62,129 nucleotides of DNA, from contig CAVSHT010000018.1 of NCBI GenBank assembly GCA_963727895.1, positions 1 through 62,129 on the forward strand, written 5' to 3'. The position numbers were made by a program, and so were the translations under genes. Positions 3,867-50,890 of this stretch are shown piece by piece; the stretch's first letter is position 1; each line of letters starts with the position of its first letter. This DNA comes from an uncultured Methanosarcinaceae archaeon (lineage in GTDB: Archaea; Halobacteriota; Methanosarcinia; Methanosarcinales; Methanosarcinaceae). The notes under the pieces are model-generated. The model saw only the letters and a list, made by a program, of their open reading frames with translations, was not told the DNA's origin and made no database searches.

Positions 3867-5159
3867 TTACACTTTATCAAGAGCCTGCTCTATATCTGAG
3901 ATTATATCTTCGATATCCTCAGTACCTATAGAAAGGCGTATATAATCTGGCTTAACTCCATTTGCTTCCTGTTCGACCGGGGTTAATTGCTGGTGTGTGG
4001 TACTTGCTGGATGGATAATAAGACTTTTGGAATCTCCTATATTCGCAACGTGTGAAAGCAGCTTCACAGAGTTAATAAATTTTTTACCTTCTTCCACTCC
4101 ACCCTTCACACCGAACCCTATTAATCCACCATAACCACCTTTAAAGTACTTGGATGCAAGTTCATGGCTTGGATGATCTGGTAAACCGGGATAATTGACC
4201 CAGGAGACCTTAGGATGATTAGACAGATATTCTGCTACCTTGAGGGCATTTTCCGAGTGCCTTGGCATTCTCAGGTGCAGGGTTTCAAGTCCTTGAAGTA
4301 ACAGGAAAGAGTTAAAAGGTGAAATCGCAGCACCTGTATCTCGAAGATATTGCAGCCTTGCTTTGTAGACAAATGCTATGTTTCCAAGCCCAGGGAAGTC
4401 TGAAAATGTGTCCCAGTATTTCAGGCCGTGATACTCTGGATCAGGATCCGTGAATTCCGAGAACTTACCGTTATTCCATGGGAACTTTCCAGAATCAACT
4501 ATGGAACCGGCAATTGAGTTTCCATGCCCGCCAATGTATTTGGTTGCTGAATGCACAACGATATCAACTCCATGTTCAATAGGTTGGACAAGCCCTACAG
4601 CACTTGTGTTGTCTACGATAACCGGAATCCCGGCTTTATGAGCAATGTCTGCGATTGCCTCAAAATCTGGAACATCAAGCTTCGGGTTACCCAGTGACTC
4701 AATATAAACAGCCCTGGTTTTCTCATTAATGGCTTTTCGGTACGCTTCTACATCAGTTGAATCTACAAATATTACTTTTCTTCCCAGCTTGGGGAAAGTG
4801 TATTTAAAAAGCTCATAAGTTCCGCCGTAAAGATTGTTTCCGGATACTATTTCGTCTCCTACTCTGGTAATAGTTAACAGGGCATAGGTTATTGCTGCTG
4901 AACCCGATGCAACTCCAAGGGCTCCAGTCCCACCTTCAATGGCAGCTATGCGCTTTTCGAACACATCAGTAGTGGGGTTCATTATACGTGTGTAAATATT
5001 ACCAAGATCTTTGAGCCCAAAACGATTGGCTGCCTGATCTGCATCCTTAAAAACATACGATGTTGTCTGATATATTGGTACAACACGTGCTCCTGTTGTT
5101 GAATCTGGAATTTGTCCAGCATGGAGGGCAAGTGTTCCTAATTTATAATTATTAGTCAT
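3867..5159 (-). CDS. metY: O-acetylhomoserine/O-acetylserine sulfhydrylase (copy 1)
   Basis: [27 protein letters not shown] (PLP lysine), [17 protein letters not shown]; overlaps the pscS stop. Confidence 0.93.
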
Positions 5160-6534
5160 TGGAATTCTTCTCCTTGTTTACCTGAAGGTTGTATTTTTCA
5201 GCGATTTCCTGGAATGTATCCACTACATAGCGAACTTTATCCCATGAAAGTCCATATGTATTAAGTTTCCAAACGCGTGTCGCTCCTGCAAATTCTCCGA
5301 CAATACCCTTGCGTGAAAGTTCATCTGAAAGGAAAAAACCTCTGCGTTTATGCTCCTGTGCTATAAGATCAAAATTTTTGATGGTGTCAACTTTGGATAG
5401 AGTATGTTTGCGTGGATATTCTGAGACGACTTTACTGCCTTCAATAGCAAGCAAACCATCAATCAGATAGTTCGACTTTTTCACCTCGTCTTCCCAGTTA
5501 TTTACTCTCTCCTTAACTGTAGGGAATGAAGCCATCATACCCAGCAATGTTGAACCCATCAATGTGCAGCCAAGCATCTCTACTTCCTTTATACCGAACT
5601 TTCGTTTGGTTAAGTCACCCGTCATCTGAGTTGTACGGAATATCTTGGGAGCCCATTCATTGGTTGTTGCCAGTACCCCCGAAGGTGCAGGTGATGCCAT
5701 GCTTTTGTGGCCTGAACCTACGATAAAGTCAGCACCGATGTCTTTTCCATCAACTGGCCTTACTCCTACGGTATAAGCTCCATTATATAGGAAAGGAATA
5801 TCATACTGGTGAGCTACTTTCGCAATGCCCTTCACATCATGCTCGTTTGCATACTGGTAATCAAAGTGGTCGATCATGACAAGTACAGGTAATTTGCCTG
5901 TTTCCTGTTTAACAGCTTCAATTTTCTCAGCAGTAGCATCTTCAGTCACAATATTGTGTTCATTTAAGGGTACTTCTCTAACTATTCCTCCTGCTCCTTC
6001 TACGGCAAGAAATTCTGTGTAATGGGCAAGAGCTGAGACTATTACAGAATTACCTTTATTGACTAAAGAGGATGTAACTGCTTGGAACCCTCTTCTCGCA
6101 CCTGGTACTACTCGAGCAACATCCATGTTAACGAAGCTGGCGAGCTGTTCATGAAATGAAGCTACAGGTGGACTGCTTATTTTGTCCAGCCTGAAAGGTT
6201 TGCGGCAGGCATCACAGGTTGAGTAGCCATCGCCATAAGCTATGAGAGCTTTTCTGGCTTCGGGTGTAAGCCTTCCTGCTGCCTGAATTGGCTGTATATT
6301 GATGTATGTTTCTTCTCTGGCTCGGATATCGATATTATCAGCGATTTTCCTTACTTTCGGAGTTCCGGTATTGTTCTCGATATTATCCAGTATTTTTCTG
6401 ATTTTGTTTACACTTTCTTTAATGGTGTGTTCTTCTTCTGGGTTTGTGACATTTGGAAGTCTTTGTCTAAGAGTCTCCCTAATATCTTCAAGGGCAAAAA
6501 GTGCCTCAAATGTTTTTTGTGTTCTTATATCCAT
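5152..6534 (-). CDS. pscS: Sep-tRNA:Cys-tRNA synthase with ~65-aa N-terminal extension
   Basis: [23 protein letters not shown] (PLP lysine) and LGCT motifs; AGGAG RBS at 6541..6545. Confidence 0.92.
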
Positions 6535-6546
6535 GTATTACTCCTA

Positions 6547-6618
6547 AGCTGAGACCCGGAATCGAACCGGGATATAATGGAGTTGCAATCCATCGCGTAG
6601 CCTTTCCGCCATCTCAGC
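6547..6618 (-). tRNA. tRNA-Cys(GCA), A37 type
   Basis: GCTGAGA/TCTCAGC acceptor stem, U73, anticodon arm ATGGA-TTGCAAC-TCCAT, T arm CCCGG-TTCGATT-CCGGG. Confidence 0.95.
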
Positions 6619-6891: not shown

Positions 6892-6905
6892 TTTACAATT
6901 GTGAA
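6892..6905. promoter_or_regulatory. Sulfur-box palindrome (1 mismatch)
   Basis: TTTACAATTGTGAA upstream of tRNA-Cys-pscS-metY. Confidence 0.75.
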
Positions 6906-7020: not shown

Positions 7021-7091
7021 AGCCAGAGCCTGGATTTGAACCAGGATAAATGGATCTGCAGTCCACTGCGTAGCCCTTCCGCCACTCTGGC
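7021..7091 (-). tRNA. tRNA-Cys(GCA), G37 type
   Basis: GCCAGAG/CTCTGGC acceptor stem, U73, GTGGA-CTGCAGA-TCCAT, CCTGG-TTCAAAT-CCAGG. Confidence 0.95.
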
Positions 7092-7943: not shown

Positions 7944-8014
7944 AGCCAGAGCCTGGATTCGAACCAGAATACATGGGTCTGCAGTCCACTGCGTAGCCCT
8001 TCCGACACCCTGGC
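7944..8014 (-). tRNA. tRNA-Cys(GCA), degenerate duplicate of 7021..7091
   Basis: Same scaffold but U10-C25 and A31-C39 mismatches and extra G-U pairs; possibly non-functional. Confidence 0.8.
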
Positions 8015-46702: not shown

Positions 46703-48256
46703 TTAACCGAACCTTCCAATAAGTGCGCTTATGCTTTCACTCGTAACCATGCCTATTACGTGGTTTTCAGAGTCAATTACAGGAAGCGCGGAAATCGAAT
46801 AATCTTCCATTATAGAGGATGCAATTTCTATTTTTTCACCTGCATATACGTATTTTACGTCACGGGTGATTATCTCATCTAATCCAGTAATTTTGCAGGC
46901 AACGGCTTTTGTAATATCCCATGAAGTGACTATACCTTCAAGCTTTCCGTCCTCAGATACTACAGGTAAATGATTTACTTTCTTTTTTACCATGAGTACT
47001 GAGGCATTTTCGATTGTTTCATTTCTGGAAACCGAATAGAAATTCTGGTACATGATGTCCCCTACAAGAATCTGAGAGAGAAAACCCCTTATAAGGTAGT
47101 TAAGCTGCCCTTCTTCGAGCAGAAAAGCATCATGTCCATACTGGGATCTGATTTCCTCGTATTTTGCATCAACCCCGTTTGCAGTAAGTGCAGACACGAT
47201 TTCCTGGGATTGATATGGAGGGTATAACCAGTCTGAGGTTATGGAAATCACAAGGTATTTTGCAGTAACCCCTGAAAGACCCTCTATAAGAGACTCGTTC
47301 TTTGAAAGGTCAAAGAAATCAACTGATTTTGTAATATAAAGATAAGAATTTGCATCAAAACGCTTAGTAAAGGTATTTCCCTGGTGATTCAGATAGCTTT
47401 CAACCTGAAAATTTGAGAAATGATCTGGAAAGGTCTCTGAAGAAATTTCAGGCAGATTCGAATCTTCTTTTTCCTGCTGGTCTCTTCCGAACTTCTTCTG
47501 CATCGAAGCATCGCTCAGATATGTAATGTGGCCTATCATGCGGGCAAGCGCTAAGCCTTGTGCAGGGATTTCCTTTCCGTAATAATTTCCTCCGTTCCAT
47601 TTTGGATCGTCAGTTATAGCTTTTCTGCCAATTGCCCCGAATGCGATTTGCTGAGGAGTTGAAGATGCAGTTGTTGCGATTGCAATAGCCTTTTTAACCA
47701 TTTTGGGATAACTAACCGTCCATTGAAGCACCTGCATTCCACCCATTGAGCCGCCTGCAACTGCAAAAAGCTGTTTTATTTCCAGGTGCTCAACAAGCTT
47801 TTTCTGCGCATTTACCATGTCCGCGATAGTAAGTATGGGAAAAGAAATACCGTAGGGTTTTCCTGTTTCAGGGTCAATTGAAGAAGGACCTGTAGAACCT
47901 TTACAGCTTCCGATTATATTTGAACAAATGATACAATATTTTTCTGTATCAAAGGCTTTATTAGGGCCGATTACGATGTTCCACCAGCCTGGTTTTTTGT
48001 CGCCTGCATGAAATCCGGCAGCATGGGAATCGCCTGTAAGAGCATGGCAGATCAGGATAACATTACTCTTATCCACGTTCATCTTCCCATACATCTCGTA
48101 CTCGATCTTAACGTGGGAGAGTGTCTTTCCACTTTCGAGCCTGAAAATTCCGGGGATTTCATAGTTCATTGAACGGACTATCCCAAGATTCTGGCCTTTT
48201 TTTCCCGAAAAAAAGTTTTTAAAGGAAGGAATCTGGATAGAAGTTCCCATGCTCAA
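46703..48256 (-). CDS. metX: Homoserine O-acetyltransferase with C-terminal CBS pair
   Basis: [29 protein letters not shown] motifs [14 protein letters not shown]. Confidence 0.95.
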
Positions 48257-49608
48257 ACCCCTGAAAGTGCCTGCTCAATATCGGCAATAAGGTCTTTTTC
48301 ATCCTCAATTCCTATAGAAAGCCTGATAAAGTCCTCAGTTACTCCACAGGCTGCCTTTTCGTCTTTTGATAGCTGTTCATGAGTGGTTGAAGAAGGATGG
48401 ATTACAAGGCTTTTTGCATCCCCTATATTTGCAAGATGGGAAAATATCTCAAGTCCTTCAATAAACTTTTTGCATTCTTTTTCTCCGCCTTTGATTCCAA
48501 AGCCTATTAGTGCACCATATCCTGATTTCAGGTATTCCTTTGCAAGTTTATGGCTGCCGTGAGATTTAAGTCCAGGATAGGAAACCCAGGAAACTTTAGG
48601 ATGATTTTCCAGGAATTTTGCAATTTCAAGAGCGTTATCACAGTGTTTTTTCATTCTGAGTGGTAGAGTTTCAAGCCCCAGGGTAAACAGGAAAGAGTTG
48701 AAAGGAGAAATACATGCTCCTGTATCCCTGACGAACTGCACTCTGGCTTTTGTAATAAAGGCTGCTTTTCCAAAGGTTTCCTTGTATTTCATGCCGTGAT
48801 ATCCTGAATCAGGCTCGCAGATTTCAGGGAATTTTTCAGGGTTCCAGTCAAAATTTCCAGAGTCAACAATAACTCCACCTATAGAAGTTCCATGGCCGCC
48901 AATGAATTTGGTTGCCGAATACACAACAATATCAATTCCATGTTCGATTGGCTTTAAGATTAGGGGAGACACCGTATTGTCCACAACAAGAGGAATTCCT
49001 GCGGCATGAGCAATCTTTGCTAGTTTCTCAAAATCAGGTATATCAAGCCCGGGATTTCCTATTGATTCCACATAAATGGCTTTTGTTTTTTCGGAAATTG
49101 CGTTTTTGAATTCCTCCGGATTACAGGTATCTACGAATTTTACATTTCTTCCAAGTTTTGGGAAAGTGTAATTGAAAAGCTCGTAGGTTCCTCCATAAAG
49201 CTTGTCCCCTGAAACGATCTCATCCCCAGGCCTTGTAAACGTGAGCAAAGCAGTTGTAATTGCAGCCATTCCTGAGGCTACTGCAAGGGCGCCTATACCT
49301 CCATCGAGAGCAGCTATCCTTTTCTCAAACACGTCGGTTGTGGGGTTCATAAGGCGTGTATAAATATTGCCTTCTTTCCTGAGCCCGAAAAGGTCGGCAG
49401 CTTCCTCAGCGTCCTTAAATACATAAGCTGCGGTTTGATAAATCGGAACTGACCTTGCTCCTGTGGTCGGGTCAGGTTTTGCACCTGCATGCACGGCAAG
49501 GGTAGAAGCTCCAGGGCTTTTAAACTTCTTTTTTGTACTGCATTTCTTTTTTTCTTTACATTTTTCTTCACATTTTTCTTCATTCTGGTTTCTTTTTTCT
49601 TTCGTCAT
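48253..49608 (-). CDS. metY: O-acetylhomoserine sulfhydrylase (copy 2)
   Basis: [30 protein letters not shown]; overlaps the metX start. Confidence 0.93.
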
Positions 49609-49695
49609 TTTATCTAACCTCAATACTAAATTTTCCTGCTATCCCGCCGCCTATATCTAAGGGTCTTCTATTCGATTATTTCAATGGTTTTGGTA

Positions 49696-49767
49696 ATTAT
49701 GGAGTGGGAATCAAACTCATGCATCTTCTGGTTGCAGTCGGAGGCATATCCTCTCTGCCATCCTGAC
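49696..49767 (-). pseudogene. Decayed tRNA-Cys(GCA)-like element in the metY-metX leader
   Basis: Gapless 72-nt alignment to tRNA 6547..6618: GTCAGGA-TG-GCAG-AGAGGAT-ATGC-C-TCCGA-CTGCAAC-CAGAA-GATGC-ATGAG-TTTGATT-CCCAC-TCCATAA-T. Confidence 0.7.
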
Positions 49768-49811
49768 ACTCGAAATGTTTTTCATATGGACACAATTGAA
49801 TAAATAACTTA

Positions 49812-49825
49812 TTCACAATTGTGAC
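49812..49825. promoter_or_regulatory. Sulfur box (1 mismatch)
   Basis: TTCACAATTGTGAC next to TATA-like 49831..49840; weak second site at 49789..49802. Confidence 0.8.
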
Positions 49826-49957
49826 TCCGGTATATATAATTATTATTAATAAATTGAAAAAACCACTATATATATAAATATTACCAATGGTAATATTTAT
49901 ATCTGTTTCACAAAAAAGTCAGGGAAAAGACTCTATAAAGTATTTCCCTTTATTACT

Positions 49958-50890
49958 TCAGTTTCCGCTAATCTCAAGCATCCTGTCCAGAGCTTTTCCG
50001 GCTTTCACCCTTATGTATTCTGGAACATGGATTTCATATTCCATGTTCTGCAAACTATTAAGAATAGACTCAAGAGTAACTTTCTTCATATTATAGCAAA
50101 AAGTCTTTTCCGATGCAGGATATAATTTCTTATCTGGATATTTCGTTCTCATGCTTCGGACTATTTCTCTCTCGGTTCCTATTATAAATTCCGTAGACTC
50201 TGAACTATCTACATCTTTTATAATGCCTGAAGTGCTGAAAATCCCATCTGCAAAACTCAAGACTTCAGGCCTGCATTCGGGATGTGCAAGAAATTCAGCA
50301 TTCGGGTACAGATTTTTTAGTTCCTGTATATCCTCAGCACCAATGTTATCATGAACATGGCAAAATCCAGGCCAGAGATGTATCTTCTTATCGGTATGAA
50401 GGGATACAAAAGCTCCAAGATTCTTGTCCGGAATAAATATAATCTCCTGGTCTTCAATTGAATTTACCACATTTATCGCATTTGCCGATGTACAGCAGAT
50501 ATCAGATTCTGCCTTTACGGCTGCCGAGCTGTTCACGTAACATACAACTGCGGCTTCAGGATGTTTTTCTTTTGCATCTCGCAGAGATTCAGCAGTAACC
50601 ATTTCCGCCATTGGGCAGCCTGCATCTGGTACGGGTAAGATGACTGTTTTTTGAGGAGAAATTATTGCTGCCGATTCCGCCATAAAATGAACACCTGCAA
50701 AAACTATGACATCAGCTTCTGAATTAACTGCAGCTTTACAAAGAGAAAGGGAATCCCCAACGAAATCCGCAACTTCCTGTACTTCGTTTCGGGTGTAAAA
50801 GTGAGAAAGAATTACTGCATTCCTTTCAGCTTTGAGTTTTTTTATTTCTTCGATAATTAACTCGTTTTTCATAACGATCTTATTCCTCAT
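49958..50890 (-). CDS. nadA: Quinolinate synthase
   Basis: VGDSL, GVHFMAE, AGCPMA, YVNS, CHVH, AHPEC, CYNMK. Confidence 0.95.
   Translation of the reverse strand: MRNKIVMKNELIIEEIKKLKAERNAVILSHFYTRNEVQEVADFVGDSLSLCKAAVNSEADVIVFAGVHFMAESAAIISPQKTVILPVPDAGCPMAEMVTAESLRDAKEKHPEAAVVCYVNSSAAVKAESDICCTSANAINVVNSIEDQEIIFIPDKNLGAFVSLHTDKKIHLWPGFCHVHDNIGAEDIQELKNLYPNAEFLAHPECRPEVLSFADGIFSTSGIIKDVDSSESTEFIIGTEREIVRSMRTKYPDKKLYPASEKTFCYNMKKVTLESILNSLQNMEYEIHVPEYIRVKAGKALDRMLEISGN

Follow-up and report, generated by a model that had tools for sequence, protein, structure and literature searches.

The window analyzed here is the entire 62,129-nucleotide stretch of DNA. It carries intact metY and metX genes preceded by a 5′ leader that contains a 72-nt tRNA-Cys-like element. 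nadA ends at 49958, upstream of the element, and the features that follow it are listed below.

49830..49846, minus strand: putative archaeal TATA/BRE region, AATAATTATATATAC on the minus strand, with a presumed promoter role
49813..49824, no strand assigned: exact copy of the palindromic operator box TCACAATTGTGA ("sulfur box")
49788..49800, no strand assigned: degenerate second box, TTCAATTGTGTCC on the minus strand, with two mismatches to CACAATTGTG
49696..49767, minus strand: tRNA-Cys(GCA) relic, 72 nt, a probable pseudogene on the basis of homology and broken stems
49609..49695, minus strand: spacer of 87 nt that separates the relic from the metY start codon (ATG), with a GAGGT Shine-Dalgarno-like site and a clade-conserved motif
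48253..49608, minus strand: metY, O-acetylhomoserine sulfhydrylase-type PLP enzyme, intact (Pfam Cys_Met_Meta_PP, E 1.9e-138)
46703..48256, minus strand: metX, alpha/beta-hydrolase homoserine acyltransferase type with C-terminal CBS domains, intact (Pfam Abhydrolase_1 and CBS)

An earlier note on this DNA, made from the sequence alone, had placed the element between a sulfur box and metY; the exact box TCACAATTGTGA at 49813-49824 bears this out, and the metY ATG (49608) lies 87 nt downstream of the element. The degenerate box aligns with the second box of relatives, in which box TCACAATTGTGA likewise lies upstream of intact leader tRNAs, and the TATA/BRE region is kept as GATAATTAT(T/A)TATAC in six clade relatives. 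The window has retained the TATA-like box, one exact and one degenerate box, metY, and metX. In the clade alignment the spacer motif reads ..AGA(A/T)ATAG..GGATAGCAG.., and no stable fold was predicted for the 87-nt spacer (z +1.42). A clade-wide conserved motif, ..GCT(G/A)AGAAATAG..GG(A/T)(G/A)GGATAGCAG.., was observed at 49630-49665 of the window and in the spacers of loci L002, L003, L031, L033, L086, and L087. Just downstream of nadA is an AT-rich perfect inverted repeat, AATATTACCATTGGTAATATT (49869-49905), which is kept in relatives as ATATTAC..GTAATAT and gave rise to a spurious miRNA match and a self-match. It may be a protein-binding site or act like a terminator.

tRNA-Cys genes and operator boxes

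ARAGORN and the Rfam tRNA model identified three intact tRNA-Cys genes elsewhere in the window, here t1 to t3, and Pfam identified two genes after t1.

6547..6618, minus strand: t1, intact A37-type tRNA-Cys (ARAGORN; Rfam, 59.9 bits)
5152-6534: SepCysS-like ORF directly after t1 (Pfam)
3867-5159: second metY, after the SepCysS-like ORF (Pfam)
7021-7091: t2, tRNA-Cys (ARAGORN/Rfam)
7944-8014: t3, tRNA-Cys (ARAGORN/Rfam)

The layout of box, t1, SepCysS-like ORF, and second metY, which the earlier note described as mirrored at the element, is present in the window. The assembly, which is 84% complete, holds six intact tRNA-Cys genes, three of them box-linked in the window and three box-free on other contigs; it also encodes tRNA-Pyl. 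The element had been proposed as a fourth tRNA-Cys, a count that does not hold: with six intact genes in the assembly, it would be the seventh.

Several further observations concern these genes. t3 scores 37 bits in Rfam, versus 59 to 60 bits for t1 and t2, and has T at position 10 (D-stem), where t2 has G; the variant may be an early decay step or a tolerated variant. Two identical tandem tRNA-Cys(GCA, G37) genes lie 64 nt apart at G000 C12:163999-164206, with no boxes. The order of one or more boxes, tRNA-Cys, and SepCysS-like ORF is kept in other genera of the family (L210, L216, and L219); the tRNA of that module is of the G37 type in these three loci and of the A37 type in t1 of the window (module at 5152-6618).

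Exact copies of box TCACAATTGTGA number 7 across the 3.67-Mb assembly and 5 on the 62-kb contig alone; with up to one mismatch allowed, the counts are 18 and 10, respectively, compared with 11 to 17 genome-wide in shuffled sequences. The box is a real, enriched motif. Its 12-mer starts in the window at 6893, 7100, 8023, 8740, 11997, 13351, 24420, 32262, 49813, and 53712. Boxes precede the three tRNA-Cys genes and metY-metX, as well as an operon of a radical-SAM protein adjoining NifH/NifD-like genes, an ABC/CobW/FeS/HcyBio operon, an operon of a PP-loop protein, IscS, and FdhD, and the CysK-CysE and IscS-IscU operons. Judged by the genes that it precedes, this set of boxes fits a candidate sulfur-responsive regulon. 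The tRNA-Cys/metY-metX and tRNA-Cys/SepCysS-like/second-metY arrangements share this 62-kb sulfur-assimilation island and the same operator. In the literature searched, with subscription journals outside its scope, neither the CACAATTGTG box nor a tRNA-Cys in a methanogen metY-metX leader is described, and a term search of PMC9499178, PMC5424206, and PMC7585200 gave nothing on the box-tRNA-Cys-metY arrangement.

Retained and broken features of the element

Aligned without gaps, the element (49696..49767) and t1 (6547-6618, minus strand) are identical at 39 of 72 positions. This is the top non-tRNA match to t1 in the window; the runners-up reach 34 on the plus strand and 33 on the minus strand, and a window-wide maximum of at least 39 was obtained with 2 of 300 shuffled t1 queries. 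The gapless alignment previously reported between the two is thereby upheld against a background maximum of 34. The closest relative of the element is not t1 but the orthologous leader tRNA of congeners (61/72).

The retained features named in the earlier note are all present in the sequence: the D-loop GG, the GCAAC anticodon loop, U73, and a near-intact T-loop. The full anticodon loop is CTGCAAC, with U33, the GCA anticodon, and a purine at position 37, as in a tRNA-Cys, and the element ends in T, so that the discriminator U73 is kept. The T-loop reads TTTGATT versus TTCGATT in intact copies; the C that has become T is universally conserved in tRNAs and is in a column that is invariant in 20 intact sequences. 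The D-stem (GCAG/ATGC) forms 3 of 4 pairs, as many as in intact tRNAs. Its retention agrees with the earlier note, which had also taken the G-C to A-T difference from t1 as a compensatory change in the element; that difference predates the element and is ancestral to the whole leader-tRNA type. The acceptor, anticodon, and T stems are largely broken, as had been claimed, with 4/7, 2/5, and 3/5 pairs, respectively. Over the entire cloverleaf, 12 of 21 pairs remain, versus 20 of 21 in intact copies.

ARAGORN called no tRNA at the element, and the Rfam tRNA model (RF00005; gathering threshold, 29 bits) gave no match to it at an E value of ≤10 in a search of 49500-50000, nor did it match the other relics described below at that cutoff. 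Intact orthologs score 53.6 to 60.9 bits with the same model. R1, a lineage-specific covariance model built from 20 intact sequences, assigns 44.6 bits to the element (E 2e-11 in 87 kb), compared with 101 to 105 bits for intact copies and 39.5 to 76 bits for other relics. The covariance check suggested in the earlier note is thus split, being negative with the general tRNA model and positive with the lineage model.

The minimum free energy (MFE) of the element is −15.2 kcal/mol (z −0.21), 81 of 200 shuffled sequences fold at least equally well, and no cloverleaf is formed; an intact ortholog reaches −28.9 kcal/mol (z −2.84) and folds as a cloverleaf. In the MFE structure of the element, positions 1 to 31 form a 10-bp hairpin, within which the change of G30 to A converts a U-G pair into a U-A pair. 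The GCA anticodon is itself paired, within a UGCA/UGCA stem, and the acceptor and T stems are both unformed. The whole 201-nt leader is not unusually structured (z +1.23). Apart from its retained anticodon loop and U73, the element fails the tests of a functional tRNA.

Intact orthologs across the genus

A search of 41 related genomes with a 401-nt leader query gave matches in 23, the strongest of which centered on the 72-nt element. At the corresponding position, ARAGORN called an intact tRNA-Cys(GCA) in all 16 loci examined. When the intact tRNA was used as a query across the genus, the leader tRNA type was detected in 49 of 59 genomes, and 66 elements were tabulated and classed by tRNA call, box, and metY/metX as follows.

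Intact tRNA preceded by a box at a distance of up to 130 nt and followed by metY or metX: 38
Intact tRNA and box, no met gene in the fetched DNA: 6, two of which were ended by contig ends
Intact tRNA standing alone, without a box: 14
Not called as tRNA: 8

The eight rows without a tRNA call comprise the window element, G048, G053, G005, G009 (in two pieces), G064, and one row cut by a contig end. The comparison of orthologous leaders that the earlier note had called for thus yielded 38 loci of the genus in which an intact tRNA is accompanied by a box and metY or metX. In relatives, the layout consists of a TATA-like box, one or two CACAATTGTG palindromes, the tRNA, a spacer of approximately 60 to 250 nt, and metY-metX. 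The intact leader tRNA reads GTCAGG...CTGCAAC... and has A37. In the named genome collection, this tRNA type occurs in records with Methanosarcina or Methanosarcinales as their title. In some other species the leader tRNA lies directly before metX, and in L080, L083, and L084 (genomes G046, G009, and G005, respectively) only a C-terminal metY remnant (aa 395/408-451) is left ahead of metX, after the leader tRNA or its relic.

The nearest relatives of the window locus are four genomes and two metagenome contigs; in the four genomes, MetY is 91 to 93% identical to that of the window. All six keep the order of TATA, box or boxes, tRNA, spacer, and metY, with alignable flanks, and no T-run follows the leader tRNA in this nearest clade. 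Their intact tRNAs share 61 of 72 positions with the element and differ from one another by 0 to 2 of 72, while the flanks differ among the six at 15 to 28 of 130 upstream positions and 6 to 29 of 90 spacer positions. The clade-wide synteny speaks against the alternative that the intact orthologs are recent insertions. A genus-wide arrangement, with an A37-type tRNA-Cys between a palindromic operator and metY-metX, is marked in the window by the element, and operator-controlled tRNA-Cys genes would be tied to sulfur amino-acid operons across Methanosarcina.

Decay of the element

The element differs from its nearest relatives at 11 to 12 of 72 positions. Of 11 changes, 10 are at columns that are invariant in the 20 intact sequences; 8 of the 11 fall in stems, and none is compensatory. 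Among the 20 aligned intact sequences, acceptor-stem pairs covary in a compensatory manner (G6-C with A6-T).

Contigs from other metagenome runs (X1 records 6 and 7 and X3 record 18) cover the element and carry the same decayed sequence. The near-strain differences listed, 37 of 56 for the X3 contig and 12 of 14 for X1 record 6, include two in the relic, at 49727 (ancestral G, anticodon stem) and 49705 (a further T-stem change). The shared decayed sequence, together with these two differences, indicates that most of the decay is older than the split of the near strains and that it went on afterwards. Among the differences listed, the relic has 2 in 72 nt, the adjoining spacer 10 events in 86 nt, and the upstream region 24 events in 96 nt; allowing for the unlisted differences, the contrast between relic and flanks has a Fisher p of 0.08 to 0.57 and is not significant at the worst case. 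Divergence from the nearest clade is 15% for the relic and 20 to 33% for the flanks, as expected if constraint was lost mid-branch; residual constraint fits this difference too. A scan of metagenome contigs for clade-specific copies returned two loci, both with an intact tRNA and neither decayed. The sole RNA run (X20) provided one contig, which lies within the coding part of metY and leaves the leader uncovered.

Relics in other lineages

Relics of the leader tRNA were also found in G048, G053, G064, the pair G005 and G009 (which have changes in common), and G018, where two such loci precede metX. The presence of relics in at least five other lineages points to repeated loss of the leader tRNA in separate lineages, with the boxes and met genes usually kept. 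Changes in each relic were counted relative to the nearest intact copy, for positions 1 to 37 and 38 to 72, respectively.

Window relic: 2 and 9 (Fisher p 0.02)
G048 relic: 2 and 4
G064 relic: 3 and 14
G053 relic: 1 and 6
G009 relic: 6 and 6

Pooled over these five relic lineages, the counts are 14 and 39 (binomial p 2e-4). In the window relic, 9 of 35 positions of the 3′ half are changed, approximately the rate of the flanks, versus 2 of 37 in the 5′ half. This asymmetry is not predicted by uniform neutral decay. The two G018 relics have no 3′ excess (6:6 and 8:5). Between the G005 and G009 copies of their shared relic there are 4 events in the 5′ half and 2 in the 3′ half, and the 5′ acceptor strand has been replaced in both. 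The G053 relic has a 2-nt deletion in the anticodon loop. When the relics are listed by locus, the 3′-half decay bias is seen among those at window 49696-49767, L078, L081, L082, L083/L084, and L208/L209 and is not seen in G018/G009.

Interpretation

The element is homologous and positionally orthologous to the intact leader tRNAs and has lost tRNA structure. Very probably, it is a pseudogene, the decayed ortholog of a leader tRNA-Cys(GCA, A37) gene. The intact positional orthologs in 38 loci of the genus mark it as the fossil of a gene and not as an RNA device of recent origin. A fossil tRNA-Cys was one of the two origins offered in the earlier note, and it is this one that the comparative data favor, with 38 intact orthologs in the same slot and 11 uncompensated changes, 10 of them at invariant positions.

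In the ancestral arrangement, still seen in the genus, the tRNA gene lies inside the metY-metX leader, behind a TATA box followed by one or two CACAATTGTG boxes. A single box-controlled promoter would have produced a tRNA-metY-metX co-transcript, from which RNase P and tRNase Z would have cut out the tRNA. In the window lineage selection apparently ceased to constrain the tRNA gene, plausibly owing to redundancy with the six tRNA-Cys genes that remain. Eleven substitutions have since disrupted three stems (acceptor, anticodon, and T) and the T-loop C, leaving no tRNA fold. The relic is most likely just carried within the metY 5′ leader of about 200 nt, and the putative promoter, boxes, metY, and metX are kept. 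The leader would be transcribed, and the relic would be unprocessed and presumably neutral.

Repeated independent loss shows the leader tRNA to be dispensable while the promoter and operon are kept. The relic lineages are natural "knock-outs" of the leader tRNA, which bears on the many tRNA-Cys genes of methanogens.

tRNA pseudogenes, the decayed copies of tRNA genes, are found in many genomes. The element resembles them in its tRNA homology, in the uncompensated loss of the cloverleaf, in being undetected by tRNA finders, and in the presence of redundant functional copies. It differs from the usual cases in lying within a 5′ leader that belongs to a biosynthetic operon, behind a shared operator, in the intact orthologs kept at the same slot genus-wide, and in the comparable decay repeated in separate lineages. 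In the mitochondrial tRNA "punctuation" model, tRNAs are part of tRNA-mRNA co-transcripts. The relatives' intact order of promoter, tRNA, short spacer, metY, and metX would by analogy work as such punctuation; the window differs in that its tRNA is dead and no punctuation is expected. The thrS operator and T-box leaders are bacterial tRNA-mimic operators and tRNA-sensing leaders. They share with the element the leader of an amino-acid-related operon and an anticodon-loop-like sequence, but the element has no anticodon stem, no specifier/antiterminator architecture, and no Rfam match, and its host is an archaeon. Haloferax-type t-elements are, according to PMC4326828, likewise tRNA-derived or tRNA-like sequences in an archaeal precursor, upstream of another gene product. 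As described there, t-elements have a tRNA-like acceptor/T-arm fold and are cleaved; the element, with 4/7 acceptor and 3/5 T-stem pairs, has no such fold.

Alternative explanations

An unlikely alternative to simple decay is that, after the death of the tRNA, selection retained part of the relic for a cis-acting role in the metY leader. The part kept would be mainly the 5′ half (the D-arm, the 5′ strand of the anticodon stem, and the anticodon loop), and it could serve as an RNA hairpin, a protein-binding site, or an anti-Shine-Dalgarno CCUCC segment. The excess of 3′ changes in the window, G053, G064, and G048 relics and in the pooled counts argues for such retention, as do the location of both listed near-strain differences in the 3′ half, next to far more variable adjoining flanks, and the 10-bp hairpin of positions 1 to 31 with its new U-A pair. 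However, the asymmetry is absent from the G018 and G009 relics, and the shared G005/G009 relic differs more in its 5′ half than in its 3′ half. The hairpin is not conserved, since the 5′ acceptor strand has been replaced in G005/G009, and neither the relic nor the 201-nt leader folds better than shuffled sequences. The near-strain contrast, moreover, is one among the differences listed. The more specific claim that selection holds the 5′ half as a metY-metX cis element independently in several Methanosarcina lineages that lost the leader tRNA-Cys is a little more doubtful still; if true, it would describe a route by which co-transcribed tRNA genes can repeatedly turn into leader elements of mRNAs.

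The second origin offered in the earlier note, reuse in the leader of a tRNA mimic that is processed by RNase P/tRNase Z, as haloarchaeal t-elements are, or bound by CysRS/SepRS, in the manner of the thrS operator, is very improbable. The kept CTGCAAC anticodon loop, D-arm, and U73 would suit a mimic, feedback control would be fitting in the leader of a sulfur amino-acid operon, and several relics keep the 5′ half unusually well. The broken acceptor stem and T stem and the changed T-loop C leave no acceptor-stem/T-arm minihelix, of the kind that defines t-elements, as a processing substrate. Likewise, with 2 of 5 anticodon-stem pairs and the GCA buried in the MFE stem, the element has no stable stem to present a GCA loop to a synthetase. 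The folding z score, the lack of an Rfam match at an E value of ≤10, and the zero compensatory changes also speak against a mimic, as does the breakage of other relics in different parts, such as the anticodon-loop deletion in G053.

Even less credible is that the element still works as an unusual tRNA, or that it is one half (5′) of a split tRNA with the 3′ half encoded at another locus. Several relics are conserved to position 37 and decayed from positions 38 to 41, near the canonical intron or split site. Against this, no second, intact-type 3′ half was found in the 84%-complete assembly, in which the best matches were 11 to 18 nt long with E values of ≥0.25; no complementary leader/trailer or bulge-helix-bulge motif was seen; and the G018 relics are decayed in both halves. 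Chance resemblance or an assembly artifact, for which the moderate significance of the t1 match taken alone (2/300 shuffles, uncorrected for three query tRNAs) could be cited, is already refuted on sequence grounds by the 61/72 identity to positional orthologs, the R1 E value of 2e-11, the conservation of flanks on both sides, and the same sequence in contigs from two other runs.

Rejected candidates and additional observations

The 13-mer GATGGCAGAGAGG of the relic has nine copies elsewhere, all in copies of one transposase gene, and was rejected as a chance match. The gene is present as nine near-identical copies (..MAERGVEVDHSTIMRWVHQYSPEI..) on G000 contigs C3, C4, C5 (five copies), C16, and C17 and is, by its look, presumably of an IS6-like family.

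A 22-codon uORF for a candidate leader peptide, MKNISSVRMAERICLRLQPEDA (49785-49717, minus strand), opens just upstream of the relic and runs through its 5′ half. It was ruled out by a 1-nt insertion just after the ATG in near strains, by relatives that read ATG-TAA at the same spot, and by the lack of a Shine-Dalgarno site preceding it.

A bacterial origin of the tRNA type was also rejected, as the many bacterial matches to the anticodon-arm 17-mer are, among the loci read, not tRNAs. The 17-mer occurs at at least 120 loci, and a tRNA is present in 22 of the 80 loci read. All 22 are in methanogen-titled records, namely, Methanosarcina, Methanosarcinales, Methanosarcinaceae, one "Methanobacteriota archaeon," and one titled only "metagenome."
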